Below are positions 4,214 through 54,356 of a DNA stretch of 64,000 nt, piece by piece (the stretch's first letter is position 1; every line of letters begins with the position of its first letter). The notes beneath the pieces were generated by a model. That model worked only from the letters and a program-made list of their open reading frames with translations, had not been told where the DNA came from and ran no database searches. The stretch comes from a virus. Taxonomy: Duplodnaviria; Caudoviricetes. The translations under genes were made by a program, and so were the position numbers. The stretch is from IMG/VR virus record IMGVR_UViG_3300031784_000006. The stretch is one strand, 5' to 3'.

Positions 4214-4420
4214 TTAAAAAGGTAAGTCTCTTCTTTTTACTTTATCTCTCATTGCTCTATATCTTTCATCGTGCCTAACTTCTGCTTCAATATCACCACT
4301 TTGAGATGCTTTCTTTGCCGACTTTTTAGCAGCAGTCATTTGTTTTTTAATTCTATTTTCCTTTTCTCTACTCATTCCTTGGTAGGACATTTCAAAAATA
4401 AACTCCCTAAAAGTTTTCAT
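4214..4420 (-). CDS. Small basic protein with capsid-targeting-like N-terminus
   Basis: MKTFREFIFE start; ATAAATA late promoter upstream. Confidence 0.75.
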   Translation of the reverse strand: MKTFREFIFEMSYQGMSREKENRIKKQMTAAKKSAKKASQSGDIEAEVRHDERYRAMRDKVKRRDLPF

Positions 4421-6198: not shown

Positions 6199-8476
6199 AC
6201 TCTCCCTCCTCTACTGAACTTAACTCACTTAGCAAATCTTGAAGATTGGGTTTTTCTTCTACTACCTCATCAGTCTTAATATCATAAGTATTTTGATAGT
6301 AAGAAGTTTTCCACCCGTACTTGTATGTAGTCAAAAAGTCATTTGCCATAACTGAAACTGGAACTTCATTATCGTCATAATTTTCTGGATTATAACTCCA
6401 GTTACCAGAAATTGCTTGGTCAAAGAACTTTTGCATTACAGCAACAACATTAATATAACCACGATTAGACTTCATATCCCAAAGAAGCGTGTAATTATTC
6501 TTAAGAGATTGATATTGTGGAACAATTTGCTTAAGTGGTCCCTTTTTACTTTTCTTAATGGACAAGAATCCGCGAGGAGGTTCGATTCCATTTGTTGCAT
6601 TTGACACAACGGAACTGCTCTCCGATGGCATCTGTGCGGACAGTGTTGAGTGCCTGAGGCCATGTTCCAAGATAGATGCTCTAAGAGTTTCCCAATCATG
6701 CTGAAGGTCAATAGATGAAATTTCGTCTACATCTTTTTTATAAGTATCGATTGGAAGAATTCCATCAGCATACTTAGTACGTCCAAAATATTCACAATAT
6801 CCCTTTTCTTTAGCAAGTTGATTAGATGCCTTTAGAAGATAATATTGGAATGATTCAGAAAGTCCATGAACAGCGTCCCATGCTTCCTGAGAATCATAAT
6901 TGAATCCAAGTTTAGCTAAATAATGAGCAAGACCAATAAACCCTACACCAAGAGAACGACGTGCCTTAGTGGCGATTTCTGCCGCCTCTACGGGGTATTT
7001 CTGATAGTCAATCAACTCATCAAGTCCACGGACAGAAAGATCACAAAGTTCCTCAAGTTCTTCATCAGACTTTACCTTTCCAACATTAATAGCAGAAAGA
7101 ATGCAAAGTGCAATCTCTCCCATATTATCATCAATGTGCTGAATAGGATCTGTAGGTAGAGTAATCTCTTGACAGAGATTACTCATGTTTACCTTATCCT
7201 TAAATGATGAGTGAGAATTGCAATGGTCAATGTTCATAATGTAGACACGACCCGTTTCTGCACGTTCCTTAAGAAGACTAAGGATGAGTTCTTGTGCTTT
7301 AATAGTTTTTTTCTTAATGGACGGATCGTTTTCATATTGTAGGTAGAGATTCTCAAACTCAGGGAGTCCAAAGCTATCATAAAGTCCAGGGACATCATGT
7401 GGAGAGAAAAGCGTGATCTCACCGTCTTGAATAAATCTTTCATAGAACAACTTGCTAATTTGGATGGAATAATCAAGTTTACGAACACGATTATCTTCCG
7501 TTCCCTTATTATTCTTGAGGACTAGAATATCTTCTATTTCTTGGTGCCAGATTGGGAAGTGGACTGTCGCGGATCCACCTCGTATGCCATTTTGCGTGCA
7601 ACATCTGACAGTTGCTTCAAACTTCTTGAGAAATGGTACAACACCCGTGTGTTGAACTTCTCCCCCTCGGATTTTGCTGTTGATGCCACGGATCCTACCA
7701 GCGTTGATGCCGATTCCCGCCCTCTGTGCAACGTATCGACCAATAGCCATATCACTGCTAAAGATAGAATCGAGGGTGTCATCAACATCAACAAGAACAC
7801 AACTAGCAAATTGTCTAAGTGGCGTTCTAACTCCTGCCATGATGGGGGTTGGAATGTTGATTTTGTGTTTTGAGATTGCGTCATAATACTTCTTTACATA
7901 GGAAAGACGTGTTTCTTTAGGATACTCTGCAAAGATAGTCAGAGCAATCATCATGTACATAAATTGTGGAGTTTCATATACTCCACCACCGCTTCTATCC
8001 TGCACGAGGTACTTGTCAACGACTTGACGTAGACCTGCATAAGTGAAAAGATAGTCACGGTCATGATCAATAAAACTATTAACTTTTGCAATCTCTTCCT
8101 GAGAATACTTGTTAAAGACATCATTATCATAAACTTCATGATTAACACACTGATAAATGTGTTGTTCTAAGGTGGGAAGTTCTTTCATCTTCCCATATAG
8201 TTGCTTACGAACAGCAAAGAGAAGTAACCTTGCGGCAACATATTGGTAGTTTGGGTGGTCCAGATCAATCAAATCTGAAGCAGAACGAATCAGAATCTCT
8301 TGAATTTCTGCAGTGGTAATTCCGTCATAAAATTGAATACCAGAGGTCATTTCAACTTGACTTGCAGAAACTCCTGCAAGACCATTACATGCCTCTTCAA
8401 CCATCAAATGCATTTTGTCTAGGTCAAGAGATTCAATTCGACCATCGCGCTTTTTAACCTTTGTACCATTGCTCAT
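6179..8476 (-). CDS. nrdA: Ribonucleotide reductase class Ia alpha subunit
   Basis: ATP-cone VKKRDGRIE, SCVL, SNLCQEI, C-terminal CESC. Confidence 0.98.
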   Translation of the reverse strand: MSNGTKVKKRDGRIESLDLDKMHLMVEEACNGLAGVSASQVEMTSGIQFYDGITTAEIQEILIRSASDLIDLDHPNYQYVAARLLLFAVRKQLYGKMKELPTLEQHIYQCVNHEVYDNDVFNKYSQEEIAKVNSFIDHDRDYLFTYAGLRQVVDKYLVQDRSGGGVYETPQFMYMMIALTIFAEYPKETRLSYVKKYYDAISKHKINIPTPIMAGVRTPLRQFASCVLVDVDDTLDSIFSSDMAIGRYVAQRAGIGINAGRIRGINSKIRGGEVQHTGVVPFLKKFEATVRCCTQNGIRGGSATVHFPIWHQEIEDILVLKNNKGTEDNRVRKLDYSIQISKLFYERFIQDGEITLFSPHDVPGLYDSFGLPEFENLYLQYENDPSIKKKTIKAQELILSLLKERAETGRVYIMNIDHCNSHSSFKDKVNMSNLCQEITLPTDPIQHIDDNMGEIALCILSAINVGKVKSDEELEELCDLSVRGLDELIDYQKYPVEAAEIATKARRSLGVGFIGLAHYLAKLGFNYDSQEAWDAVHGLSESFQYYLLKASNQLAKEKGYCEYFGRTKYADGILPIDTYKKDVDEISSIDLQHDWETLRASILEHGLRHSTLSAQMPSESSSVVSNATNGIEPPRGFLSIKKSKKGPLKQIVPQYQSLKNNYTLLWDMKSNRGYINVVAVMQKFFDQAISGNWSYNPENYDDNEVPVSVMANDFLTTYKYGWKTSYYQNTYDIKTDEVVEEKPNLQDLLSELSSVEEGECESCAV

Positions 8477-9441
8477 ATTTTCTTCCAGGTAGTAAATTTA
8501 AGTTTTGCTTCTAAACCAGAGTAAGTATTAGATTCTATCACAGATTGAACATCAAGTCCAGATAATGTCATTTCATTAATGTCCTTTTCTTTTATTGTTG
8601 AAGGCCAGATAACAACTTTTTGTCCGTCTCCGATAACACGGGAAATTCTTGATAGGATTTCTGGATTACGTGGTTCGTTATCGTATATCCAAACACAATC
8701 GCAAATACCCCACTTAGTAACATCACCATCAGCTCCACAAAGAGCAATCGCGTTGCGAATGAAGGAAGAATCAAATGGACCTTCTGTAATGTAGACAGTT
8801 TCACTTTTTTGGACTTCATCGAGACCATAAATTTTTGGTGCATCATCGTTGAGCATTACTGTAATGTATTTTACCTTACTGGGACCAAGTGCTCTACCCT
8901 GAAATCCGACTAAAGTATTTTGATAAAACAAGGGTATTATAATCCTTGGTTCATCTTTATCTGTATTGTCGAATGTTAGTTGAAGAGAATTAGTCCACTC
9001 CTTGAATTTTTCGGCGTAATAATAGTTATCTGGGTTTAATTTTCTACTTTCCAAATAACTTTTTGCATTGGGATTTGTTGACGCTTTAGGCAAATCCAAT
9101 TTTTGTTTGAATTTTGGCGTCTCAAATTGAAATACTGGTTCTTCTACTGAAAAATTTTTTCCAGTATGACCTTCTTTAAATTTTTCAAAAGTATACTGCT
9201 TATGAATTGTAGTATCAATTTGTTTTAAAAAATTATTAAAGGATACATTAACACCACAATTATGGCACTTAAAATTTGTATTATTTTTTACTTGATAAAG
9301 ATATCCCCTTGCCTTATTCTTATTCTTTTGGGAATCTCCACAAATCGGACAACGAAAATTATACAGATTATTTTTTACCTTTTTAAACTTTTGAAATCTG
9401 GAAGAAATCAAATTGATGTATTTAACATCAACAAAATCCAT
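8473..9441 (-). CDS. gp61: DNA primase
   Basis: CPICGDS...CHNC zinc finger, TOPRIM EGPFDS, DNEPRN. Confidence 0.97.
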   Translation of the reverse strand: MDFVDVKYINLISSRFQKFKKVKNNLYNFRCPICGDSQKNKNKARGYLYQVKNNTNFKCHNCGVNVSFNNFLKQIDTTIHKQYTFEKFKEGHTGKNFSVEEPVFQFETPKFKQKLDLPKASTNPNAKSYLESRKLNPDNYYYAEKFKEWTNSLQLTFDNTDKDEPRIIIPLFYQNTLVGFQGRALGPSKVKYITVMLNDDAPKIYGLDEVQKSETVYITEGPFDSSFIRNAIALCGADGDVTKWGICDCVWIYDNEPRNPEILSRISRVIGDGQKVVIWPSTIKEKDINEMTLSGLDVQSVIESNTYSGLEAKLKFTTWKKI

Positions 9442-9465
9442 GACAATACATTGAGGAGTCTACTT

Positions 9466-9493
9466 ATTCTACCAGACTACTGGGTTTTGTCAA
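9466..9493 (-). promoter_or_regulatory. sigma70-like promoter TTGACA-16-TAGAAT upstream of primase
   Basis: Hexamers read directly. Confidence 0.6.
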
Positions 9494-9590
9494 TACACAA
9501 AACCGTCATAATTGCAGTCCACTTTATAACTGAATTTGTAATTTTTTGCAGTGAATAAATCGTTGTCTTATTTTTAGTTTTCACTGGCAT
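9477..9590 (-). CDS. Small hypothetical protein (37 aa)
   Basis: MPVKTKNKTTIYSLQKITNSVIKWTAIMTVLCIDKTQ* fills the intergenic gap. Confidence 0.4.
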   Translation of the reverse strand: MPVKTKNKTTIYSLQKITNSVIKWTAIMTVLCIDKTQ

Positions 9591-9607
9591 CTTGTGCCAA
9601 CACTCAA

Positions 9608-9955
9608 TTATTTATTTCTTACTTGTTCTGATAATGAATTTACAGAAGAAGTTATAAAATCTGTTACAACTGGGACAAATAATAAAGCAATTGCAACTAC
9701 GCCCGCTACCATCCATTTAAATTTTGATATTTCATCAACTTTAACTTCCAACTTACCAATTTTCTCATTAATATCTTCATCACTTCTGGCACAGTTAAAA
9801 ATTCTTTCGTCGTGAACCGCAAGCATCTTACAAATGTTCTGATTAGTCTCACTTAAGGTTTGAATGGCAGCATCTACACGCTCTACCATTTCTTCATGAA
9901 TTTTCACTCTTTCTTCAAGAACAGCAACCTTAATTTTTGAGTCTTGACCGAACAT
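9608..9955 (-). CDS. Coiled-coil protein with C-terminal transmembrane helix (holin/XhlA-like architecture)
   Basis: Heptad-rich N-terminus followed by KWMVAGVVAIALLFVPVV. Confidence 0.7.
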   Translation of the reverse strand: MFGQDSKIKVAVLEERVKIHEEMVERVDAAIQTLSETNQNICKMLAVHDERIFNCARSDEDINEKIGKLEVKVDEISKFKWMVAGVVAIALLFVPVVTDFITSSVNSLSEQVRNK

Positions 9956-9959
9956 TTGT

Positions 9960-10175
9960 TTACTGCGATGGTTTATTTTTCATCCAGCGTTTGCGGGATC
10001 CCGTTCCTAAAGACGCATATTTCTTTCTTCTTGATAATCCCATAACAGGGTCAAATCCAGCGACTGGACCTTTTGAATCTGCAGAACCAGAAAAACCACC
10101 TTGAGCTCCTGGAGCATTGGCAACCATTTGCTCTCTTATTATTGAAATGATTCTATCAATCTTCTTCTTTTCCAT
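9960..10175 (-). CDS. Small hypothetical protein
   Basis: 71-aa ORF in a co-oriented cluster. Confidence 0.7.
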   Translation of the reverse strand: MEKKKIDRIISIIREQMVANAPGAQGGFSGSADSKGPVAGFDPVMGLSRRKKYASLGTGSRKRWMKNKPSQ

Positions 10176-10548
10176 TATAGATTTTATAGAGTTCTCCTAG
10201 ACAGTAAAGATCGACTTGAATGTTATGAATACCGGATTTTGGATATTCCGGTAACCTATTCAAAAATATTATAAAAGATTTTAAACAAGGCCAAAGTTCT
10301 TTTTCTATTTTAAAAAACAGCATTGGTGTTGCTGCCTCAGAAAAAATATTATATAGAATAATAAAATGGTTTAAAATCAGGTGAGTTTTAAGTTCACCTG
10401 ATTTTTTATACCTTTTCAAAAGTCTTTTGATATATTTAAAATGATTTAAATCTTTTTCAAAATCTTCTTTAGTTACAGCTTGAGGGTTTTCATAATTTTT
10501 TATAGCAAATAAAATAAAATTATCCTCATTCAAATCATTAAAAATCAT
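10156..10548 (-). CDS. Hypothetical protein typical of T4-like phages
   Basis: LNEDNFILFAIKNYENP...LILNHFIILYNIF. Confidence 0.8.
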   Translation of the reverse strand: MIFNDLNEDNFILFAIKNYENPQAVTKEDFEKDLNHFKYIKRLLKRYKKSGELKTHLILNHFIILYNIFSEAATPMLFFKIEKELWPCLKSFIIFLNRLPEYPKSGIHNIQVDLYCLGELYKIYNGKEED

Positions 10549-14040: not shown

Positions 14041-15330
14041 TCAAGCACGTACTTTTTGTTTCTTATACTTATTTATGAAATTCAAGAATGCTTTACCGCC
14101 TGGTTGGATATTTTCTTTCCCAAATTTAGAACCAGGTGTTTGTTCGAATGCATATTTAAGATATCCAGCAGTTCCAACAAGCGTATTTGGTTTTCCTGGA
14201 GTTCTATACATACGATCCATCTTAACTTCAGTATATTCCATTAAATCTTTGATCCAAGACTTAAACATATAACCTTCTTCGGTTACACAAATTAAATGAT
14301 TAGTTCCTCTACGCATCACTTCACCAATCAAACCAGTATTTAAATTCTGAACTTTATCGCCAAGATTGAATATTTTTCCTCTTATATAATTTTCTCGAAG
14401 ATTTTTCATATCATACTTTGGAGCAATCTGCCATAAAGCAAAACTTTCTTTCTTGACTTTTGATTTCTTTGCTCCCATTCCTTGGCGAACGGCATTAAAA
14501 AGTGATTGAGTTTCTGCATCATCAAGTGTCTTTGGAGTTCCTCTACGAAATGATTTAAAATCATCATCTACTACAGCCTTTCTCATCTTAGATGCAGACA
14601 TTCCTTCAACACCCTCAGCATCTGCATCTCTTACACCAGCGGAAACTACACGAATTAAGTCAAAGTTATAAAGGTCCCCATTATACTTTTGAGCAAGGTT
14701 TTCAAACTCAGCTTGACGGTCAGAACCAACAACAATATTGACATTAGTATATCCATCTTCATTTGCAGTCACTAGAACATTAAAAATGGTTTTCATTTCT
14801 TCATCATTAATAATGTTCTCTTCAAATTCGGGGAACATTTTTTTCATATAAGAAACCTTAGTATTAGGATCTAAAGGATTCTTTTTAGGGTCTTGAGACC
14901 TTGAAGGGTAAATCTTAATATCTCCACCAGTAGCAATTCTCTTTGCCGACTTGAGAAGTTTTTCGTGTCCTACTGTTGGTGGATTGAAGCGACCAAACAC
15001 AACGGTAAGTGGTGGCAGTTCTTCTGCAGGTTGCTCTTCTGGTGCTTGTCCTGGTGCTGCTTGAGGTTGTGGCGCAGGTGCTTGTCCTGCTTGAGTTGGT
15101 TGTGCAGTTGGAGCAGCACCAGCGGGTTGTCTTCCTGCTGCTGGTTGTTCTGCACCTTTTGGTTTTCTTCCATCAGTAAATTTTAACTTTCCCTTTTCAG
15201 TTCTTGCAACAAGTTTACCGGAGCGGTCAATCCATCCACCATGGCCGTCCCCAGAGTATCCAAGTTTCTTCGCTTGCATTGCTGCTTGCGATTCTTTTGC
15301 TTCAGTTAGAAAATTGAGAAAACTTTTCAT
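14041..15330 (-). CDS. HxGH-family nucleotidyltransferase (cytidyltransferase-like)
   Basis: FGRFNPPTVGHEKL, VVGSDR, MSASKMR; begins MKSFLNFLTE. Confidence 0.88.
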   Translation of the reverse strand: MKSFLNFLTEAKESQAAMQAKKLGYSGDGHGGWIDRSGKLVARTEKGKLKFTDGRKPKGAEQPAAGRQPAGAAPTAQPTQAGQAPAPQPQAAPGQAPEEQPAEELPPLTVVFGRFNPPTVGHEKLLKSAKRIATGGDIKIYPSRSQDPKKNPLDPNTKVSYMKKMFPEFEENIINDEEMKTIFNVLVTANEDGYTNVNIVVGSDRQAEFENLAQKYNGDLYNFDLIRVVSAGVRDADAEGVEGMSASKMRKAVVDDDFKSFRRGTPKTLDDAETQSLFNAVRQGMGAKKSKVKKESFALWQIAPKYDMKNLRENYIRGKIFNLGDKVQNLNTGLIGEVMRRGTNHLICVTEEGYMFKSWIKDLMEYTEVKMDRMYRTPGKPNTLVGTAGYLKYAFEQTPGSKFGKENIQPGGKAFLNFINKYKKQKVRA

Positions 15331-29858: not shown

Positions 29859-29914
29859 ATTATAAACCAAAAAAGGGTCCGCTTGGGACCCCGGTGGTCA
29901 GTTTGCCAACTGGT
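29859..29914 (-). promoter_or_regulatory. Box + hairpin + TATAAT promoter module
   Basis: ACCAGTTGGCAAACTGACCAC, GGGTCC CAAGC GGACCC TTTTTT, TATAAT. Confidence 0.65.
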
Positions 29915-30083
29915 TCTTGAGTTCTTTTAGGTACTCCTCACTGGCAATATGTCCGGTATAACCTGGGTAATATTTTTTTACAAGTGCAGGAATGCCCATA
30001 GCAGTTGTACTACTATTACACTTAATCCATATTTCTTTAGTGTCGTATTTTACTACGTGTTCAAATGGAAATTTAGTCTTCAT
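29898..30083 (-). CDS. Small hypothetical protein
   Basis: MKTKFPFEHVVKYDTKEIWIKCNSSTTAMGIPALVKKYYPGY... Confidence 0.65.
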   Translation of the reverse strand: MKTKFPFEHVVKYDTKEIWIKCNSSTTAMGIPALVKKYYPGYTGHIASEEYLKELKNQLAN

Positions 30084-30582
30084 AAGTAAATGTTTTGTTT
30101 TTAACTTTTGTATCGAATTCACCAGTTCTACCTGGTTTCATTTTACCAACTTTAACACGCTTACCTTCTCCAGGCCAAGACTTATTAGTTCCAACAAGTT
30201 GAGCACCACCTTTTGGTTTCTTTTGAATTAAAACAGAATCTTGATTATATTTCTTACCAAGTTTAGTGATTGCTTTCTTAAAAGTTCTTTTACCCTTTTT
30301 ACCAGAAGAAATTACGTGTGATTTCTCACCAACTTTCTTCTCTTGAGGAGTTCCTGGGTTTTCGGTATATCTTCCAGAAACTTTAGTAGGTCCCGGAAGA
30401 CCAGCACCTCTAATGTCTTTCTCTAGTTGCTTAGAACGAGACTTATTTTCCGTCTTTGACTTATCACCTCTTTGGGCAGACATAATTGCCATGCCACCTT
30501 TTTGTGATTTTGAGCGAACTCTATTCAAAGAGGTTTCTTGAATAGAGCAGCACTCTACCATAAATTCTTGGAATGTCTTCAT
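30073..30582 (-). CDS. Putative S-adenosylmethionine lyase (T3 SAMase-like) with capsid-targeting N-terminus
   Basis: IMSAQR...ENKSRSKQL...GRYTE...GEKSHVI...LGKKYNQDSVLI matches the T3 SAMase pattern VSAFR...VNMSRHRHM...GCYRE...EEKTVRV...LACNEWEQDCVLV (recalled, not searched). Confidence 0.72.
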   Translation of the reverse strand: MKTFQEFMVECCSIQETSLNRVRSKSQKGGMAIMSAQRGDKSKTENKSRSKQLEKDIRGAGLPGPTKVSGRYTENPGTPQEKKVGEKSHVISSGKKGKRTFKKAITKLGKKYNQDSVLIQKKPKGGAQLVGTNKSWPGEGKRVKVGKMKPGRTGEFDTKVKNKTFTYED

Positions 30583-32768
30583 GCTACCAAAGAAATAAAT
30601 TCTCCTAATACTTTTTTATTTAGTTTTTTAGTCTTCAAAGACTTTACAAAAGCGGACTTGATTTGAGACTTTGTTGCATCTTCAGCAACTTCAAACTCAG
30701 ATTCCTGAGAAAGTGCGGTTGCAGACAACCCAAAATATGCATCATAACCAGACTTAGTAATAGTGAAGCTTTTCACTTTCTTCCAATCATTCTGGATTTT
30801 TTCATACTGATTATCATTATGAGAATGGTAGAGTTGAATAAATCGGTTTGCATTGCGAGGTTCAAGAACACGAATACCAATAAAGTTTGTAGAAGAGAAC
30901 TTGTCCTTCAGATTCCTTAGAAGAGTATCGGTAAAATCATGATACCCATAACCAATCTTATATGTAGTTCCAAGTTTACGATCGCGAATAAAAGTATTAT
31001 GTGGATTAATATATCCAGTTCCAAGAAAGGGGGTTTTTTCCCAATGCCTTTTAACTTCTCGATGATAAACTAATTGACTTGCTTCACCATCAGTCAGAAC
31101 AATACACTGAACTTTTTGCAGTTTGTTCTCTTTCTGAAACCTAGGAAGAATTTGATGAAGGGTAATCAGTGCTTCATTTAGAGGAGTTCCCGAAAGACTA
31201 AGACGATTAGAGTATGTATAAGGAGAACTATAAGTCCTACCAAAACAATAAGCAAGACGCCAAATGTTAAGAATCTGATGTTCTAACTCTTTACCAGAAA
31301 CTTTGCTAGTAAGCATATTCATCATGGAGAAAGTTTCATCCACAACCAAAAGACCATCTTTCTTCTCATAATGAGGAGTACGGTCTGCAGCAAAATAACG
31401 GTCATTCTCATAATCATACTCACCACGACGCCACTCATTGGTGAAAGCATAAACCTCAAAAGGAATGGAAATTTTCTTGCAGAACCAAACAAGATTAAAG
31501 AGTTGCTTGCAAGTATCAAGCATCACTTCAGCCATAGAACCACTCCAGTCCAGAACAAATACCAGACCATGATTCTTACCATCAGGAATCACAGAAACTT
31601 TCTTGAACAGGTCTTCATTGTACTTGTAGGTATGAAGACGAGTAGTATCAAGAACACCAGTTCGAGCAGTTGAAGAACGAGCGTACTGGTCTGCTGCTTT
31701 GCGACATTCAAACTCTTTCACCAGATAGTTGACCTCTTTTTGAGCAGAAGACTTAAACTTCTTAAACTCAATATCAACTTCTTTATAAAGATTTACTGGA
31801 GCATATCCTCTATCTTTTGCATGTTCATTATGAAGTTTCTGTTGATGAGAAAAAGAGTCATCAATATCCTTATGAACATCATAGTTCTTACCAATAATAG
31901 TTTCAAGATTTACTTTAGGAATCTCAATGTACGTATTCTCATAGTCATCGTTTCCAACAAGATCACGAATCTTATCTTCCAGAGATTCTGCAGTGCGAAC
32001 TTCAGGTTCTTCTTCAGTATCAGAAGATTTTACAGGAGTTTCATTTCCTTGAGCCGTTCCACCATAAGAATCAGATTCGCCAGGTTGTTCCTGAGACTTA
32101 TCACTCTCACCTTCTTGTTCAGAAGAGGAATCATTAGTCTCCACAAAATCACTTGCAGGAGATTGTGAATTTCCTTGAGTCTCGTGAGAATCGAAATCAG
32201 AAACCTTCTGTTGTTGCTCTTTTTCTTTCTTACAATACTTATAAAGTTCTTCTGCAGCAATCAGAGTATCTGCAAAACTTTCACAAGCATCAATCAAATT
32301 AATGATTTCTTTCTCTTCGGGTTTAAAATTGAGAGTCCGAAAGTTACCAATCTTAAAATAAAGATTAGCACGGTCAGCAAGATTAAAAGTAGAAATATCT
32401 TCATCTCCAAGTTGGAAGAAATCTTCCTCGTTCAGTTCTTTATAACCGTTGAAGAAAGTCTTGGCAAGTCCAGCATACTTACGCTTCATTAGTTTTTCAA
32501 TACGTGCATCCTCAACAACATTTACAAACTGCTGAGGAACTTTCACAGTTTCCAACCAGTCTTCATCGGGAGTGAAGAGTGCATGACCGACCTCATGACC
32601 CACCAGAAGGTCATACACAAGTCCACTTGCCTTCTCCCACAAAGGCAAAGTTAAGACACGAGTATGAACGTTGAAGCAAGCGGTCTCTACTTTCTTGTGC
32701 TCAACTACAAGGTCTTCAGTAGCAAGGAGTTTTGCAAGTTGAGATTTGATTTCGTGACGGACGGACAT
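30579..32768 (-). CDS. CobT-like vWA-domain protein with N-terminal HExxH metallopeptidase-like region
   Basis: GHEVGH, EDARIE, MIDAS motif LDWSGSM, SGTPL, VLTDGE. Confidence 0.85.
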   Translation of the reverse strand: MSVRHEIKSQLAKLLATEDLVVEHKKVETACFNVHTRVLTLPLWEKASGLVYDLLVGHEVGHALFTPDEDWLETVKVPQQFVNVVEDARIEKLMKRKYAGLAKTFFNGYKELNEEDFFQLGDEDISTFNLADRANLYFKIGNFRTLNFKPEEKEIINLIDACESFADTLIAAEELYKYCKKEKEQQQKVSDFDSHETQGNSQSPASDFVETNDSSSEQEGESDKSQEQPGESDSYGGTAQGNETPVKSSDTEEEPEVRTAESLEDKIRDLVGNDDYENTYIEIPKVNLETIIGKNYDVHKDIDDSFSHQQKLHNEHAKDRGYAPVNLYKEVDIEFKKFKSSAQKEVNYLVKEFECRKAADQYARSSTARTGVLDTTRLHTYKYNEDLFKKVSVIPDGKNHGLVFVLDWSGSMAEVMLDTCKQLFNLVWFCKKISIPFEVYAFTNEWRRGEYDYENDRYFAADRTPHYEKKDGLLVVDETFSMMNMLTSKVSGKELEHQILNIWRLAYCFGRTYSSPYTYSNRLSLSGTPLNEALITLHQILPRFQKENKLQKVQCIVLTDGEASQLVYHREVKRHWEKTPFLGTGYINPHNTFIRDRKLGTTYKIGYGYHDFTDTLLRNLKDKFSSTNFIGIRVLEPRNANRFIQLYHSHNDNQYEKIQNDWKKVKSFTITKSGYDAYFGLSATALSQESEFEVAEDATKSQIKSAFVKSLKTKKLNKKVLGEFISLVA

Positions 32769-36488: not shown

Positions 36489-36986
36489 TCAATACCGCAG
36501 TTTGCTGTGAACTCCGTCCTTAATGGAATTATAGTCTGAATAGTTCCCACCGTCAATGGTGTTGTCGTCTGCAAATACTTCAGAAAATCCAGAACGCTCA
36601 AGGATTTTGTTCTTGATTTCTAGTTGACGCTTTTCTCTCTGAATACGGCGAAGAAATGCGTAGTGAATGATTTGAGTAAAATAAGCAAAAGGATTTTGAG
36701 ATTTCTCCGGATTAAAGTTATGAATGTACTGAACACAGTTTTCAATGCCATCAGAAATCATATCTTCCTTAAACATATAGTTCACGAAGTTTGGTTTGAA
36801 GGAAAGGTGATTTGCAATCTTCAGGAAACACTCTCCAATGTAGCGAGGAATGGGAGGTTTTGGCTTTCCTTGGATTTCTGCAATTTCTTTATCCTCACGA
36901 TACTTAATGAGTGCAGCAAGAAACTCTTTATTGTTAACATAATGCTCTGACCTCTTTCTTTTGGTCATAACTGCTGTGGTAATCAT
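36489..36986 (-). CDS. gp55: Late transcription sigma factor
   Basis: HYVNNKEFL, IGECFLKIA, NFVNY, DGIENC, NPFAYFTQI. Confidence 0.97.
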   Translation of the reverse strand: MITTAVMTKRKRSEHYVNNKEFLAALIKYREDKEIAEIQGKPKPPIPRYIGECFLKIANHLSFKPNFVNYMFKEDMISDGIENCVQYIHNFNPEKSQNPFAYFTQIIHYAFLRRIQREKRQLEIKNKILERSGFSEVFADDNTIDGGNYSDYNSIKDGVHSKLRY

Positions 36987-40025: not shown

Positions 40026-41453
40026 TCACATAAGGTTCTTAACAGCAACTCTTCTGTAGTAGCGGTTGGTGTTAACGTTGAGTCTACCCTCACCTCTGCT
40101 GAGACCCTCAGCGAATGGGTTAGCAACAAGACCATAACGAGTCTTGAAGCCAATCTTGGGCTGGAAGGTGTCTTCGCCAACGGCACGCACCATCTGGAGA
40201 GGAACGTAAGGGCAATAGAACAGACCTGCATCATAAGGTGAAGAACCCTTATAACCAACAACGTAGTACTGGTTACCAGGAGTTGCATTACCTGCAGTCA
40301 GGTTTGCTGAATATGGGTCAATGTATACGCGGAACTTGCCCATCAGAGTACCAGCAAAGGTGTTGCCAGTATCATCAACGTTCAGGTTAGCGTTTAGTGC
40401 AGGGGTGTAATCAAGAACACCAGCCATGGTTAGTGCTGAAGCAACGTCAGCAGAACACATGATGATGTTGCCCTTTCCGCGACGAGTTCTTTGTGCGATT
40501 GCGTTAGCGTCGCGCTCGATTTGGAACAGAAGACCCTTGAACTTCTCAACAGACCAACGACCGTTTGAATCAACGTCGAGGTCGAATACGCCAGCGGTAG
40601 CAACGTTTTGTGCTGCACCCTTTTCAGCGGTCATGTAGATGGTACGAATAACTTCGCGGTTGATTTCAGCAAGAATCTCAGTTGAGAGAATGTTTGCTAA
40701 TTCCGCTTCAGCATTCAGACCGTGGATTGCCTTGAGGTCTTGAGCGAGCTCGAGTGAGTACTCAGCCTTCAGGGCGCGTGACTTTGCAGTAACAGTAACT
40801 TTCTCGATTGAGAAAGCCATCTGGTTGAACTGGTTACCTGCAGCATCGCCAAGTGCTTCTGAATCGCCAGTTGGCATACCTTGACCGACGTTATAATCGG
40901 TAGCAGCAACTGAAGCAGCGTTCAGAAGAGCTGGGTTACTACCAGACTGTGCGGTAGTACCAATACCAGAACCTACTTGCGAATGAGCGCCAGTAAGAGT
41001 GGTATCGAAACCTGAGTCTGTACCAGAGAATGCAGTATCTACTTCATTGAAGAAGGTTTCTGCACCACTCTGATTGGTGTAGCGGGAGCGCATTGCGAAG
41101 ATGAGTCCAGTAGGACCACTCATTGGTTGAACGCCAGCGAGGTCATAAGCGACCAGGTTAGGCATTGAACGACGAATAAGTGAGATCAGAACTGGATCGA
41201 AACCAGCAACGCTTTGGCTACCACCACTACCAAAAGCGCCGCTAGCGCCAGCGGCATTGCCACTGTTGGTTGGTGATTCCATGAGCATACTCATGGAGCC
41301 ATTGTCGAAAGCAGATTGCTCTCTAACAAATCTTTCTTGGTTTTCGAGCAGGACAGCGGTTACGGCTCTACGATGAGAATCTTTGATTGGATCAAGACCC
41401 TGATAGTCTAAGAGGGGTGCCCACTTTTCCTGCAGATGCTCGGATTGGAACAT
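40026..41453 (-). CDS. gp23: Major capsid protein
   Basis: LQEKWAPLL, GVQPMSGPTGLIFAMR, SRALKAEY, FYCPYVPL, FKTRYG. Confidence 0.99.
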   Translation of the reverse strand: MFQSEHLQEKWAPLLDYQGLDPIKDSHRRAVTAVLLENQERFVREQSAFDNGSMSMLMESPTNSGNAAGASGAFGSGGSQSVAGFDPVLISLIRRSMPNLVAYDLAGVQPMSGPTGLIFAMRSRYTNQSGAETFFNEVDTAFSGTDSGFDTTLTGAHSQVGSGIGTTAQSGSNPALLNAASVAATDYNVGQGMPTGDSEALGDAAGNQFNQMAFSIEKVTVTAKSRALKAEYSLELAQDLKAIHGLNAEAELANILSTEILAEINREVIRTIYMTAEKGAAQNVATAGVFDLDVDSNGRWSVEKFKGLLFQIERDANAIAQRTRRGKGNIIMCSADVASALTMAGVLDYTPALNANLNVDDTGNTFAGTLMGKFRVYIDPYSANLTAGNATPGNQYYVVGYKGSSPYDAGLFYCPYVPLQMVRAVGEDTFQPKIGFKTRYGLVANPFAEGLSRGEGRLNVNTNRYYRRVAVKNLM

Positions 41454-41511: not shown

Positions 41512-42681
41512 TTATTTGCTGAATGCTGAAAGAGTCTTCAGATATGCAGCCATTGAACCTGAAATTAATTCGGGTGCATTGTCTACACCTTCTGACAGAG
41601 ATTCAGTTTTAGCTGAAGGAGAAATTACTCTTGAAGGGAAATATGATTCCTTCAAAGTCTCCAGTTTTTCACGATATTCTTCTTCACTTTCAAACTCAAC
41701 ACTTTCGGCAAGTGAAGCGAGCTTGTCCTTCTGAGTGTCTGCAAGACCTTCAGCGACTTGATCAAAGATTCCATCAGCAACCGACTCTGCGAGACGCTTG
41801 TTAAGGGAAACGTTTTTCTCGATTTGCTCGTTGAGTTTTGTCTCCATTTCATCAAGTTTTTCTACCATGCTCTCAAGCACATCATATTTATCTTCAGGGA
41901 TTGATACATAATGTTCTTCAAAAAGACCTCTCATTCCTTGGAGGAATGATTCGGTCATCTCGGTCTTAAGACCTTGTTCGATAACGAGTGCATTTTCTTC
42001 CATCCACTCGCCAGCAACATACTCAAGGTATGCATCTACACGCTCAGAAAGTGCTTCTTTAATTTCTTCAACTTCTTCTGCAAGTGCAACTGCATACTGC
42101 TCTTCAAGTGCTTCTTGAATAGAAGCAACTTTTGAACGAAGAGCAGCCTCGAAGATGGTGCGTGCTTTCTCTTGGAATTCCTCAGAAAGCTCTTCACCTT
42201 CAAGAAGAGCATTGACATCTTCCTCAATATCAAACTCTTCTTTTACGTCCTCTTCTTCTTCGTCCTCTTCTTCTTCGTTCTCTTCTTCTTTCTTTGCCTT
42301 TTTCTTAGGTGCTTCTTCCTCTTCTTCAGCAGCCTCTTCGATTACATCTTCATCACTCTCTTCTTCAATCATATCCTCATTATCAAGTTCTTCTTCCTCT
42401 TTATGAAGACCCTTCATTGGATCAGCAGAACCTGCGCCTTTATTTACAACATCTCTAACTTGCTTGAGTGTTGCTCCAGGAGTTTTCAGTTTTGCTGAAT
42501 CATCCGTTGAACGATAGTTTGAAGGATCAGGTCCACCAAGATCTTCCCAACCTGCAGTTTGGCCGTCAGGAATACCTGTAGTTAGTTTTGACATCGGATC
42601 CGCCGCTTTAGCATTTGCATTAACAGCGGTTCTGGATGGTTTAGTGCCTACTTCCATTTCTTGTAAATCTCCACGAGACAT
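41512..42681 (-). CDS. gp22: Prohead core scaffolding protein
   Basis: Acidic coiled coil, LSEEFQEKARTIFEAA, LFEEHY; position between gp21 and gp23. Confidence 0.93.
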   Translation of the reverse strand: MSRGDLQEMEVGTKPSRTAVNANAKAADPMSKLTTGIPDGQTAGWEDLGGPDPSNYRSTDDSAKLKTPGATLKQVRDVVNKGAGSADPMKGLHKEEEELDNEDMIEEESDEDVIEEAAEEEEEAPKKKAKKEEENEEEEDEEEEDVKEEFDIEEDVNALLEGEELSEEFQEKARTIFEAALRSKVASIQEALEEQYAVALAEEVEEIKEALSERVDAYLEYVAGEWMEENALVIEQGLKTEMTESFLQGMRGLFEEHYVSIPEDKYDVLESMVEKLDEMETKLNEQIEKNVSLNKRLAESVADGIFDQVAEGLADTQKDKLASLAESVEFESEEEYREKLETLKESYFPSRVISPSAKTESLSEGVDNAPELISGSMAAYLKTLSAFSK

Positions 42682-42737: not shown

Positions 42738-43388
42738 TTACAATGAGTTTAAAAACTCATTGAATAATGATAACTTATATTCTTCAAGAATACCTTGGTC
42801 TACAAGGGTATTAATTTTATTCTTAGTATTTTCTGCCATTTTTTCTCTAAGGATGCCACCATCCCAAATCCACTCCTTTCCTTCCATAATTCCCTGAACA
42901 AATGCGTCGGGAGCTGAGGGATCTGCTACAATATCAGCAGCAGTTGCAAGCATAAAGTCTTCACCAACTTCTTTATATCCCTTATTATTCTCTCTTAAAG
43001 ACCCAATACCACGAGAAGAAACGCCAAGAGTTACTCCATCTTTAAGAAGAGACTCCGCAATCTTACCCATTGGTGTGGATAAAATTTGTGCCTTTCCGAT
43101 AAAGTTATTTCCGCTGCGATAAAGTTCTGTAATTTTATGAGAAACTCTATCTAAATTAACAGTAGGTCCGTCTGGATGTCCTAGTTCGCCAAGAGCACGT
43201 CCCTTTTGAACGTATTGTTCGTTATAACGATTTACTTCACGTTCCATAATCTGCATAGGATACATTCTTCCATTGCGATTCACGCATTCTGCTTGCAAGA
43301 ATGGTCCTTTAATGTAGAGTTTTGCTTGCTTACCAGTTCCTTCGGTAATAACCTCTACTCTTTCGATTTCTTCTCTAATTAGTTTCAT
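42738..43388 (-). CDS. gp21: Prohead protease
   Basis: NRNGRMY, GELGHP, GVSSRGIGS, DIVADPSAPDA. Confidence 0.97.
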   Translation of the reverse strand: MKLIREEIERVEVITEGTGKQAKLYIKGPFLQAECVNRNGRMYPMQIMEREVNRYNEQYVQKGRALGELGHPDGPTVNLDRVSHKITELYRSGNNFIGKAQILSTPMGKIAESLLKDGVTLGVSSRGIGSLRENNKGYKEVGEDFMLATAADIVADPSAPDAFVQGIMEGKEWIWDGGILREKMAENTKNKINTLVDQGILEEYKLSLFNEFLNSL

Positions 43389-45270: not shown

Positions 45271-45591
45271 TTAATCAATCCATTCCAACTTTGATGGGTG
45301 GTATCTTTTTGCGTTTCTAATATTGAAATTCTTTTCAGTTACGGGATAAATCTGATGAACGACTGCTCCTGGATAATCTCCCTGAAGTTGTTCTCCTAAA
45401 TCTCTTTTAGATGGAATTCCACTTTTAGTAACCAATTCCATCCTATACAAACTTCCTTGCCACAAAACATCCGCAACATACTCTTCTCCAACCTGTTGTG
45501 GTGTTTCTGGTTGGGAGTTAATGTAAAGATTTCCGTTAAAGTCTCCGGAAATATTTACTGATTCTGAGATGAATTGTTTGAAGGATTTCAT
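45271..45591 (-). CDS. Hypothetical protein with capsid-targeting-like N-terminus
   Basis: MKSFKQFISE start. Confidence 0.8.
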   Translation of the reverse strand: MKSFKQFISESVNISGDFNGNLYINSQPETPQQVGEEYVADVLWQGSLYRMELVTKSGIPSKRDLGEQLQGDYPGAVVHQIYPVTEKNFNIRNAKRYHPSKLEWID

Positions 45592-45780: not shown

Positions 45781-47478
45781 TTATATCTCCCCACCCTTAG
45801 GCATTTCTGCTATTTTTCCACTTGCTTCAACTGATTTTCCTTGAGAGTCTATATTTGGTTCCATCACTGGTTGCCCCAAATCCATTTGAGAAGTTTGTTG
45901 CCCTGGTTCTAGTGGCATACCTGTCATAGGATCTACAGGTATACTGGGGTCTGGAATAACTCCATCCTTAATTTCTTTTTTAATAATTTTGTCTTGCTCT
46001 AAAATTTCTTCATCAGTTTGACGAAGAATCTTACGTCTAACGTAATCTTGAGAGAAATATTTTCCAACATATGGTTCAGCAATTTGTACCATACCCAATC
46101 TTTCATTTAGCAACTCTGCATCTTTAAGTTCTGCAAAATGATTATCATACAAGAAGTCATATTGAATGTGTTCGTCCATTCTATTCCAATCTTCTGGGGT
46201 AATGATATTTTTTAGGATCAATTGAGTCCTCAACATATCACTAAACATATAAGAAAATCTCTTCCTCAGACGAGCAACAAATTTGCTGAATTTAACTTCA
46301 TCGCGAAGAATCTCTGATGATCTTCCAAGATTAAACCCACCATCTCCACCAATTCTTGTTGTAGGTACATTTAAAGATCTATAAAGTTTTTCTTGGAAAT
46401 AATTAATGTCAGTAATCTCTCCAAGGTTTTGTCCGCCAGGAAGTGTTGATATTTCAGTACCTCTTCCACCTTCTCTTCTTGGAAGCCAAAAATCCTCAAG
46501 CATTGCCATGAATTTTTTATCATCACGAATCTCACCAGTGCTTGCATCATATACCAACTTGTTACGATAACGCATCATAACATCGCGGAGATATTGTTCT
46601 GCTTTTACTTTAGGTAGATTGCCTACATCAATGTAGAAAATTCTTCTTTCTGGTGCGCGTGATAGTCTGTAGATAACAAGTGAATCTTCAATCATACGAA
46701 GTTGATTGAGAGATTTGATTGCCTTATGGAGATATGAAAGCGTTGAACCCTTATTTCTATCAACGAGTCCTGAAGTACAATATGCCACAGAATCTTTTGT
46801 CATTTTGATTCCTGCATTAGAACCTCCAAGAGCTCCAGGTGCTGGAGTTCCTGTTGGATATGTCATTTTTGGTTGATAGATAAAATATTCTTCAATTTCG
46901 GGAAAATCGAAATCCATTGGATTATCGACATTTCTATTTGAAATTTTTAATCTATCATTTTCTTTCTTTTTTGCTTGGCGTACATAACGCATTTTCATTG
47001 CGTCAATATATCTCAATTCTTGTATACCAGCCTCTGGATTTTTAAAATCTATTACTTTGTGGTAGTATAATCTACCATCAATATACCAATTTCTGTAGAT
47101 TTCGTGTGCTTTTTTATCAAAATCTAGAAGTTCTAAAATATATTTAAATTCTTCTCTAATTTTTTTCTTAATGCCATCACTAGCATTTAAATTGTCCAAA
47201 TCAATTTGAACAGGACTATCATTACTATCCGATACGATAGCTTCATTTACAATATCTTCAATGGCACTATCACACTCTGGGTGAAGCGCCATTTCACGAT
47301 ATCTTTTAATTAAATCGAATTCTGTTCTATAAACACCTTCAATATCTACATACGAACCAAAAAATCCACTAGTTAAATAATGGTCTACCCCGTCCTCCTT
47401 ATTGGGAGGAACGGGGGACATTACACTTTGCGATAATGGTTCATTATCTTCAATAGAAAAACCAAAAAGTTTTGCCAT
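45781..47478 (-). CDS. gp20: Portal protein
   Basis: WYIDGRLYY, IYRLSRAPERRIFYIDVGNLP, EDFWLPRR. Confidence 0.98.
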   Translation of the reverse strand: MAKLFGFSIEDNEPLSQSVMSPVPPNKEDGVDHYLTSGFFGSYVDIEGVYRTEFDLIKRYREMALHPECDSAIEDIVNEAIVSDSNDSPVQIDLDNLNASDGIKKKIREEFKYILELLDFDKKAHEIYRNWYIDGRLYYHKVIDFKNPEAGIQELRYIDAMKMRYVRQAKKKENDRLKISNRNVDNPMDFDFPEIEEYFIYQPKMTYPTGTPAPGALGGSNAGIKMTKDSVAYCTSGLVDRNKGSTLSYLHKAIKSLNQLRMIEDSLVIYRLSRAPERRIFYIDVGNLPKVKAEQYLRDVMMRYRNKLVYDASTGEIRDDKKFMAMLEDFWLPRREGGRGTEISTLPGGQNLGEITDINYFQEKLYRSLNVPTTRIGGDGGFNLGRSSEILRDEVKFSKFVARLRKRFSYMFSDMLRTQLILKNIITPEDWNRMDEHIQYDFLYDNHFAELKDAELLNERLGMVQIAEPYVGKYFSQDYVRRKILRQTDEEILEQDKIIKKEIKDGVIPDPSIPVDPMTGMPLEPGQQTSQMDLGQPVMEPNIDSQGKSVEASGKIAEMPKGGEI

Positions 47479-52356: not shown

Positions 52357-54204
52357 TTAGTTACAATTCCAACGGCGAAGTGCTTTATTAATATTGCTAT
52401 CTGGATCTCTTGCAGTTTCTGCAGAAGTTAGTTTTGATTTCATTCCTTTCATTCGACGACAAAATGAAGCACGACGTTTCGCTCTTTTTCCTTCTGGATT
52501 TTTTTCAGTTACTGCAGTTTGAAGTTTTGAACCGGGGTTCTCTCTACGATATGCTTTAACTGCCGCTGAACTTAATCCATCAGTTTTATCTTTACGGTTG
52601 ACTGATTGCCAATCTTCACCAATTTCAACTTCTTCTCCCATTGTCTTTACATAATTCTTATTTGAACCTAACTTTGCGGAACTGCCGCCCTGGGAACTAA
52701 AAGTTTGAATAAGTGGTTGTCCTGGTTGAATTTCAGAAACCGAATGGTATACGACTATTGAACCTGGATAAACTTTTTGAATCTCATCGTTGATTTCTTT
52801 TCTGGAAGGTGTCTTTACTTGTGGGAAGAACATCTTGAGAGAATAATATTTTCCTCTCCATGAAAGAGTTACCGCGATGACATTTCCAGTCTGTGCTTGC
52901 AGTCTTGTTGCTTCGCTCATTTGAGATTTAAAACCTTTGATTGGTTCTGGTTTGATTACGTCAACTACTTCCGCAAAAGTATTTCCGTTTAAGTCTTCTA
53001 TTGTTTGTTCTGGCACACAATTTGGAACTGTTTTTTTGCCCTTTTTCTTCATTCCAACTTGCTTATATCCGGACCAACACGCCTCATCAACTTCACTTTC
53101 TCCGCCATCAAGATAGTCTGCTGCAGTATCAATATAGTCTGCTGCTTTAGTGATTTTTGACTGAACCCATGCCTCTAAATTACCTTCACCTTTTCCAACT
53201 TTTGCTCGCAATCTTTTTACGGCATTTTCGATAGTTTGAAGTTCGCCGCGAACCATTGAATATTCTTCATCTTTTGATTCGGGTATAGTAGGCATAGTTA
53301 TATTATAGTCTTTTTTTCCAGAAACCACTTCTGAAGGTAATGAAAACATATCCCAGTATTTTTGTCCGTATTTACACTCATCTCTAGACTCAACTTTTTC
53401 GCATTTAGGACAATATCTTCCTGGATTTTCTCTAATTGGTCCATCCCACTCATAATTTAAAGCATCCGTACTTTCTGATTTAGTTCCCCAGTTGTCAGCA
53501 CCAACCTTACGGCATTTAACCAAAGCACCTGATGCATACGCACTTGGCCAAACACTATATCTAGACTTTACTTTATGGTAGCAAGCATCTTTAGTTCCGC
53601 TACCTTTACCTTTTTTATCTTTTGCTTCTTGTATATCCATTTCTTCTTTGATTTTCTTTCTAGGTGAATCTGTAGAAACATAAGTTGGTTTTGCAGCACC
53701 TGATTTCTCTTGTTGACCAGAATCTGCTACCTTTTTTCTTCTTGATGCGGAACGTCTTTCTGCAGGAGTCATGCTTGCTCTTTTAGAAGAAGACACACAT
53801 TTTGGAACTCCTTCTCCCTGTTCATCACTTGCACATGTTCCACCTGTAACTACATTTACCCAACCAGATTTACCATCCTTTGATTTTGATTTACCAAACC
53901 AATCGCGAAGACCCTCTTCTTTTACAGTATCTTCATATGCAATTCTTTTTTTGCTATGTTCAATTTCTCCTTTTTGCTTAGCAATCAATTTCCTTGACCA
54001 AGCGCCAACATTAATATCTTTTGGATTTTCATCTGGCATTCTCTTTTTGGGATTGTCGAAAACATCGACATCACCATCAGCATCACGATCAACATATTGA
54101 ACAGCAGCGTGATGCACTAACTGTTTAAGATCAAGATTAGGATCTAACTGATGTTGTTTTGCCTTTAAATGTGGCGTTTTGTGGGAAAATTTTGGATATT
54201 TCAT
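52357..54204 (-). CDS. Modular basic protein with Cys-containing mini-domains, inserted between gp16 and gp17
   Basis: 615 aa; modules such as GLRDWF, SAYASGALVKCR, EACWSGY, FCRRMKG..RRWNC. Confidence 0.85.
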   Translation of the reverse strand: MKYPKFSHKTPHLKAKQHQLDPNLDLKQLVHHAAVQYVDRDADGDVDVFDNPKKRMPDENPKDINVGAWSRKLIAKQKGEIEHSKKRIAYEDTVKEEGLRDWFGKSKSKDGKSGWVNVVTGGTCASDEQGEGVPKCVSSSKRASMTPAERRSASRRKKVADSGQQEKSGAAKPTYVSTDSPRKKIKEEMDIQEAKDKKGKGSGTKDACYHKVKSRYSVWPSAYASGALVKCRKVGADNWGTKSESTDALNYEWDGPIRENPGRYCPKCEKVESRDECKYGQKYWDMFSLPSEVVSGKKDYNITMPTIPESKDEEYSMVRGELQTIENAVKRLRAKVGKGEGNLEAWVQSKITKAADYIDTAADYLDGGESEVDEACWSGYKQVGMKKKGKKTVPNCVPEQTIEDLNGNTFAEVVDVIKPEPIKGFKSQMSEATRLQAQTGNVIAVTLSWRGKYYSLKMFFPQVKTPSRKEINDEIQKVYPGSIVVYHSVSEIQPGQPLIQTFSSQGGSSAKLGSNKNYVKTMGEEVEIGEDWQSVNRKDKTDGLSSAAVKAYRRENPGSKLQTAVTEKNPEGKRAKRRASFCRRMKGMKSKLTSAETARDPDSNINKALRRWNCN

Positions 54205-54356
54205 TCAACTGGTTTTGATTTAGTCTCCTCACCTTTTGCTCTTTTCTTTCTCGCCGCACAGTGAGCACGTTGAGAAAATCCTTTTGGACTAGAGCAATCA
54301 ATACTCTTTTTATATTTATCGCTCCAGTCTTCTTGAAACTGTTTAAATGTCTTCAT
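54201..54356 (-). CDS. Small basic protein (51 aa) with capsid-targeting-like N-terminus
   Basis: Manually translated MKTFKQFQEDWSDKYKKSIDCSSPKGFSQRAHCAARKKR...*; not in the ORF track. Confidence 0.75.
   Translation of the reverse strand: MKTFKQFQEDWSDKYKKSIDCSSPKGFSQRAHCAARKKRAKGEETKSKPVE

Follow-up and report, generated by a model that had tools for sequence, protein, structure and literature searches.

Why should an enzyme that destroys S-adenosylmethionine (SAM) begin with a peptide closely resembling the one that sends internal proteins into the head of phage T4? The question is raised by an open reading frame (ORF) at positions 30073-30582, on the minus strand of a 64,000-nucleotide (nt) stretch of DNA (the window) from the IMG/VR virus record IMGVR_UViG_3300031784_000006 (Duplodnaviria; Caudoviricetes). 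The ORF list and the sequence give a protein of 169 amino acids (aa) with the N-terminus MKTFQEFMVE. SAM lyases split SAM into methylthioadenosine and homoserine lactone. The window is part of the genome of a T4-like, Kyanoviridae-like cyanomyovirus, and the ORF is a real gene of that phage. We consider it somewhat probable that its product is a two-part protein, made of a SAM lyase of the T3/Svi3-3 type (residues 20-169) behind a T4-type capsid targeting sequence (CTS; residues 1-10, possibly 1-16), and that it is injected into the cell with the phage DNA.

The enzyme core and its relatives

An initial annotation of this DNA had placed the ORF and its start codon exactly, and had read the core as T3 SAMase-like from a series of motifs. 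All of these are present. In the hhalign alignment, IMSAQR, ENKSR, GRYTE, GEKS and LGKKYNQDSVLI fall column by column on VSAFR..N.SR, GCYRE, EEKT and EQDCVL of T3 SAMase. The assignment to the SAM lyases is upheld by a Pfam match above the gathering score, a profile search of the PDB, the predicted fold and the conserved substrate-binding residues. The Pfam family S-AdoMet_lyase (PF23780) covers residues 33-168 over profile positions 2-124 of 133, with 62 bits (E 7.1e-17; gathering score 28 bits), and phrog_12788 matches the ORF with an E-value of 2.5e-30. No NCBIfam model was found for the protein, and a phmmer search of the PDB with the single lyase sequence gave no match. An alignment of 79 diverse relatives is the basis for the profile search, the structural model and the conservation counts reported here. 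Searched as a profile against the whole PDB, it found only the T3 SAM lyase (7OCK/8BB1, E 8e-4) and Svi3-3 (6ZM9, E 0.5). When the same alignment is compared by hhalign with T3 gp0.3 (from NC_003298), query positions 32-133 align with T3 positions 13-113 (E 6.9e-6), and Glu86 and Gln114 are paired with T3 Glu68 and Gln94, respectively.

The AlphaFold2 model built on this alignment has a mean predicted local distance difference test score (pLDDT) of 85. In a Foldseek search of the PDB, the seven best matches are all T3 SAM lyase or Svi3-3, with E-values from 1.9e-6 to 2.4e-3. The comparison with T3 SAMase and Svi3-3 structures that the initial annotation had proposed has thus returned both enzymes, by profile as well as by fold. 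Superposition by VIA-align on the T3 SAM lyase (8BB1_E) gives a Z of 15.1 and a root-mean-square deviation of 2.9 A, with 133 residues aligned in the model range 20-169. The Svi3-3 structures reach a Z of 7.8-8.4, and unrelated ferredoxin-like and PII-like folds a Z of about 6.5.

Among active SAMases, Gly56, Glu69 and Gln104 of Svi3-3 are the only strictly conserved residues; Tyr58 and Glu105 are conservatively retained, and mutation of Glu69 (Glu68 in T3) abolishes function (Guo et al., 2021, PMC7877911). The HMMER and hhalign alignments provide a counterpart for each of the five. Glu69 and Gln104 correspond to Glu86 and Gln114, both invariant in the 79 relatives, while Gly56 corresponds to Gly70 (77 of 79), Tyr58 to Tyr72 (70 of 79) and Glu105 to Asp115 (75 of 79). 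All SAM-contacting residues are conserved in the cyanophage protein. Judged by its fold and by these residues, the ORF very probably encodes an active SAM lyase.

The resemblance to T3 gp0.3 (7OCK, 8BB1) extends over the whole enzyme, with the same fold and the same motif order (SAxR..N..R, GxYxE, EK[ST], QD[SC]VL). The T3 gene differs in being the first early gene expressed after DNA entry, and its product has neither a leader nor any association with the virion. The cyanophage lyase has 19 extra N-terminal residues that include the CTS, its isoelectric point (pI) is 10.2 as against 8.2, and the identity between the two is only 16-18%. Svi3-3 (6ZM9, 6ZMG, 6ZNB; PMC7877911) shares the five conserved residues, but it is the weaker structural match and has no targeting leader either.

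The leader and its occurrence in virion proteins

The initial annotation had likened the N-terminus to the MKTYQEFIAE-like start of T4 internal proteins and had called it a T4-type CTS. The first statement is true of IPII and IPIII: when translated from NC_000866, ipII and ipIII both begin MKTYQEFIAE, and ipI begins MKTFKEF. The second agrees with what follows. The lyase leader is identical to that of IPII and IPIII at 7 of 10 positions and has Phe4 in common with IPI. In the T4 CTS, positions 4 and 7 are used for targeting and positions 8 and 10 for processing, and an Asp at position 10 stops processing and leaves targeting unaffected (PMC9026906, a review of Black's work). At these functional positions the lyase reads Phe4, Phe7, Met8 and Glu10. 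Since the whole T3 enzyme maps onto model residues 20-169, residues 1-19 (a predicted low-confidence helix, pLDDT 59-67) are an addition. Basic composition is another trait of T4 internal proteins (PMC9026906), and 40 of the 169 lyase residues (24%) are Lys or Arg.

Between the leader and the core lies a short spacer. In the alignment, position 14 is Leu, Ile, Val or Met in 76 of the 79 relatives, position 16 is Glu in 77, and position 17 is Ser, Thr or Ala in 64. M-V-E10 agrees with T4, and I-Q-E16 with the L/I-x-E rule of T4 gp21; both may be cleavage sites. The [LIVM]-x-Glu before the core lies in a segment absent from T3 SAMase and Svi3-3, and could serve as a conserved site for a protease or as a structural N-cap.

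Among 120 close metagenomic homologues, most begin with leaders of the MKTF or MKTY type. In several cluster representatives (P0123, P0124, P0127, P0129, P0153, P0188, P0196) the lyase domain starts 60-215 residues into the protein and the leader still comes first. Because it stays at the terminus despite these variable linkers, the leader tracks the N-terminus and not the domain.

The same peptide is found on unrelated proteins of this phage. In a six-frame scan of the 64-kb window, the motif K-[TS]-[FY]-x-x-F-x-x-[ED] follows the start codon of five ORFs, the lyase and four others given in Table 1; the number expected by chance for some 66 genes is about 0.0003. At the DNA level, conservation in the five leaders and in the sequence upstream of them goes no further than the codons, which indicates that selection acts on the peptide. 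For the same reason the idea that the motif is a DNA recombination cassette was rejected. The cytidylyltransferase is probably a second packaged enzyme, by analogy with its orthologues in S-SM1 and S-CREM2 virions; a linker of about 95 residues, rich in Pro, Ala and Gln, precedes its enzyme domain. The 51-aa basic ORF, given its Asp10 and the behavior of T4 leaders with this residue, may be packaged uncleaved. The 106-aa ORF is acidic and sits where T4 has its prohead core genes 67 and 68; it has no obvious sequence likeness to T4 gp67 or gp68.

Published virion proteomes connect the leader to particles. In Synechococcus phage S-CREM2, mass spectrometry of CsCl-purified virions detected 52 of the 219 proteins. 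One of them is ORF6, a "SAM hydrolase (virion protein)", with 19 unique peptides, for which the authors suggested entry into the cell and a protective role against restriction-modification (2023; PMC10665884). ORF6 is 55% identical to the lyase of the window across all 169 residues and has an equivalent leader, MKDFDSFLEE. It also has a long extension at its C-terminus (414 aa in total) and is encoded next to a Dam methylase gene. The S-CREM2 genome was scanned in six frames, at potential starts, for the pattern M-x-x-[FYL]-x-x-F-[hydrophobic/T/Q]-x-[ED]. In addition to ORF6, the annotated matches are ORF13 (hypothetical, MKDLHSFLTE), ORF14 (kinase, VKRFDAFLTE), ORF136 (hypothetical, MQTFSMFFSE) and ORF154 (cytidylyltransferase, MKNFSSFLTE). 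Each of the five proteins appears in the published list of virion components, and the sole further match is an antisense ORF with a TTG start. In S-SM1 the unchanged pattern has one annotated match, the cytidylyltransferase SSM1_190 (MKKFSAFLNE), a protein singled out as an unexpected virion component (Sullivan et al., 2010, PMC3037559).

Other phages add little. The cluster to which the P-SSM2 homologue belongs (T4-GC 110) is unmarked as a virion protein in Sullivan et al. (2010) and has no S-SM1 coordinate there, which makes it uninformative. By tblastn, a lyase homologue was not found in Syn9 or S-PM2, and nothing relevant was found in the S-SCSM2R virion proteome (PMC12801897). The S-CREM2 paper makes no mention of targeting, propeptides, N-termini or internal proteins (PMC10665884). 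A literature search combining capsid targeting with cyanophage or Synechococcus turned up only a T4 review and a paper on SPN3US, and no description of a cyanophage CTS.

Some related proteins deserve a remark. S-CREM2 ORF12 (7704-10313), a virion-detected "Cas9-like" protein of 869 aa, has a leader-like LRFASFMAE at residues 17-25; to judge from this sequence, either its start may be mis-called or its propeptide may be longer. The lyase homologues of S-CREM2 and S-H34 (315 aa in the latter) both have a long Lys-rich C-terminal extension, and in both phages a single small gene (46-48 aa) separates the homologue from the DNA adenine methylase gene upstream of it.

Gene neighbourhood and late promoters

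The nearest record to the window is Synechococcus phage S-T4, with about 79% identity across parts of the region. The lyase gene is flanked by a gene for a vWA/"peptidase" protein of 729 aa (phrog_459), which lies upstream, and by a gene for a MoxR/CobS-type ATPase (phrog_249). The stop codon of the former overlaps the lyase ATG (ATGA). At the other end, a 61-aa ORF (MKTKFPFEH..., 29898-30083, minus strand) begins 11 nt ahead of where the lyase gene ends, and these two genes are therefore translationally coupled; this ORF has no Pfam or PHROG match. The equivalent gap in S-SM1 holds only a 47-aa ORF, and in P-TIM68 it holds purM, a lyase homologue and three more small genes. As the content of the gap differs among the three phages, the lyase gene occupies a variable slot. 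The window also encodes gp46, gp47, UvsW, gp45 and gp44, all on the minus strand, together with the head genes listed in Table 1.

Table 1. Coordinates of the lyase gene, its parts and the other features of the window discussed in the text.
Feature	Position	Strand	Basis or remark
Leader-tagged SAM lyase gene, 169 aa	30073..30582	-	Stop codon 30073-30075; PF23780, phrog_12788
CTS-like leader, codons 1-10, MKTFQEFMVE; first candidate gp21 site after Glu10 (M-V-E)	30553..30582	-	Likeness to T4 CTS
Spacer, codons 11-16, CCSIQE; ends in a second [LIV]-x-Glu site (I-Q-E16, candidate) directly before the core	30535..30552	-	Conservation in the alignment of relatives
SAM lyase core, codons 20-169, with Gly70, Tyr72, Glu86 and Gln114-Asp115-Ser116	30076..30525	-	VIA-align, Foldseek, hhalign
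CTAAATA, candidate -10 element of a T4-type late promoter; lies within the 3' end of the preceding gene, 41 nt before the lyase ATG	30617..30623	-	Motif match
68-aa basic ORF, MKTFREFIFE, pI 10.1	4214..4420	-	CATAAATA about 26 nt upstream
429-aa cytidylyltransferase, MKSFLNFLTE	14041..15330	-	phrog_395; CTAAATA 27 nt upstream
106-aa ORF, MKSFKQFISE	45271..45591	-	phrog_1742; between portal and protease genes
51-aa basic ORF, MKTFKQFQED (Asp10), pI 9.75	54201..54356	-	Sequence
gp55-type late sigma factor	36489..36986	-	phrog_234, E 5e-68
gp23	40026-41453	-	
gp22-type head scaffolding protein; expected docking partner of the leader	41512..42681	-	phrog_237, E 1.1e-108
gp21-type prohead maturation protease; expected leader-removing enzyme	42738..43388	-	phrog_207, E 4.6e-81
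Portal	45781-47478	-	

Late-promoter-like motifs are frequent in the window, many copies of TATAAATA and NATAAATA lying 25-46 nt upstream of gene starts. The canonical TATAAATA occurs 10 times against 5.3 expected, always on the coding (minus) strand, and NATAAATA has 32 copies on the minus strand and 1 on the plus strand. This pattern fits late promoters of the T4 type that the product of the gp55 gene would serve, and the enrichment of TATAAATA on the coding strand only suggests that such promoters are in use in this phage.

Proposed packaging and injection, and the alternatives

How the two halves of the protein might work together can be proposed by comparison with T4. The leader would dock the newly made enzyme on the gp22 scaffolding core, so that it is enclosed in the prohead. 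The gp21 protease would then cut after Glu10 and/or Glu16, freeing the basic enzyme in the head alongside the DNA. In the next infection it would be ejected with the genome, and the SAM pool would be lowered, or SAM synthesis blocked, from time zero. The loss of SAM would blunt SAM-dependent defences (type I and type III restriction, and bacteriophage exclusion, BREX) before phage transcription. We infer docking, cleavage, ejection, catalysis and the defence target. Packaging of the lyase in the head is likely; for an anti-restriction or anti-BREX role, the chances look about even. A complex prediction for the gp22 scaffold with lyase residues 1-32 scored 0.00 in a run without controls, and is counted neither way.

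The capsid-targeting reading of the leader is supported, indirectly, by its identity with the T4 CTS, by the four other leader-bearing ORFs, by its locking to the N-terminus, by the gp21 and gp22 genes of the window and by the published virion proteome. Several observations weigh against it, or against injection as a means of depleting SAM. The lyase gene stands amid replication genes (vWA peptidase, MoxR/CobS ATPase and gp45), and its translation is coupled to that of the gene before it. The only element it has that resembles a late promoter is the CTAAATA that the initial annotation had offered as a late-promoter variant. The element is present where described, but it is no commoner than chance, with 10 copies in the window against 14.8 expected and a strand bias of only 8:2 toward the coding strand, so late expression of the gene is not established. 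A literature search on CTAAATA returned only unrelated papers. As to the leader itself, the [LIVM]-x-E16 also occurs in leaderless relatives with a short N-terminus, and may therefore be structural (helix 17-28) instead of a protease site. In many distant relatives the leader runs straight into the domain (MKTFxEFLxE-SSLSR), with no spacer between them; part of the motif could thus be an ancient, intrinsic feature of a lyase subfamily and not a portable signal. The hypergeometric P of 6e-4 for the S-CREM2 overlap is optimistic, since the pattern was widened after the N-termini of that phage had been seen (MKDF, MKNF, VKRF and MQTF, not MKTF). The same test in S-SM1 has an n of 1 and a P of 0.18, and is consistent with virion detection. 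Finally, a SAM-dependent Dam methylase beside the lyase in several such phages sits awkwardly with SAM depletion.

Some of these observations would be expected if the protein were a plain cytoplasmic SAM lyase, synthesized in the course of infection like T3 gp0.3 and left unpackaged, its N-terminal motif being an inherited helix or translation-initiation feature of the subfamily that plays no part in targeting. The replication-gene neighbourhood, the coupling to the upstream gene, the chance frequency of CTAAATA and the direct fusion of MKTFxEFLxE to the SSLSR domain start in distant relatives all speak for it. Such a feature of the lyase would leave unexplained why four unrelated proteins of the window bear the same leader, why it remains N-terminal across long and variable linkers, and why the DNA round the five leaders is unconserved beyond the codons, pointing to selection on the peptide. 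Nor does it sit well with the detection in virions of the S-CREM2 homologue and of every other annotated leader-bearing protein. We regard it as unlikely that the lyase is simply cytoplasmic.

The protein might also be packaged for a main purpose other than bulk SAM depletion, such as cleavage of SAM-AMP (type III CRISPR), a block of the host SAM synthetase by binding, in the manner of the T3 SAM lyase, or service as a basic, DNA-associated internal protein. SAM-AMP lyases (9GAB, 9GAD) have the same fold, the T3 SAM lyase structures 7OCK and 8BB1 are complexes with MetK, and the high Lys and Arg content and pI recall T4 internal proteins. Moreover, tens to hundreds of injected molecules may not drain the cellular SAM pool fast. 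In structure, bona fide SAM lyases are nevertheless closest by a wide margin, at a Z of 15 by VIA-align against about 6.5 for the SAM-AMP lyases, and the SAM-contacting residues are all conserved, though sequence does not discriminate these substrates. A different packaged role is thought improbable here. That the protein resembles SAM lyases in structure but lacks catalytic activity, as its low identity to the T3 enzyme might suggest, is very hard to believe: Gly70, Glu86 and Gln114 show no or almost no variation in 79 diverse relatives and are accompanied by Tyr72, Asp115 and Ser116, as is typical of an enzyme subject to purifying selection.

The reading in which an active lyase is packaged behind a CTS has close precedents in T4. 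IPI, IPII and IPIII have a near-identical 10-residue leader followed by a hydrophobic-x-Glu gp21 site, are basic, and have genes scattered beyond the head module. IPI is injected and counteracts restriction (PMC9026906). The T4 proteins differ in being small and non-enzymatic, whereas the cyanophage cargo is a metabolic enzyme from a family known for counter-defence; moreover, loading, cleavage and ejection have been demonstrated in T4 and are inferred for the cyanophage lyase. T4 Alt, an ADP-ribosyltransferase, is a head-loaded enzyme that is processed by gp21, injected and active before transcription (PMC9026906); it is another enzyme, whose target is RNA polymerase, and it has a different propeptide. 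Neither the enzyme family nor the CTS system is new, and a virion-borne cyanophage homologue and the idea of its injection have been published (2023, PMC10665884). What is new with respect to the literature searched is the link between a T4-type address label and a SAM lyase, a cytidylyltransferase and a kinase in cyanophage virions.

Taken together, the comparisons allow a tentative generalization, to which we give slightly less than an even chance. T4-like cyanophages, and probably other marine T4-like phages, may keep the CTS as a general address label for loading a shifting repertoire of enzymes (SAM lyase, cytidylyltransferase, protein kinase, nuclease-like), and the SAM lyase would then be an injected counter-defence that depletes a metabolite before transcription. 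To our knowledge, SAM lyases have been described only as early-expressed counter-defence enzymes; we know of none that acts before transcription, and of no CTS with such cargo. Early expression leaves a period during which the incoming DNA is open to restriction or BREX, and a pre-packaged enzyme would close it. The CTS leader would also supply the missing mechanism for the unexplained, non-structural enzymes reported in cyanophage virion proteomes. Finally, a leader of the form M-K-x-F-x-x-F-hydrophobic-x-E would provide a simple rule by which the injected cargo of the abundant marine T4-like phages may be predicted from their genomes alone.

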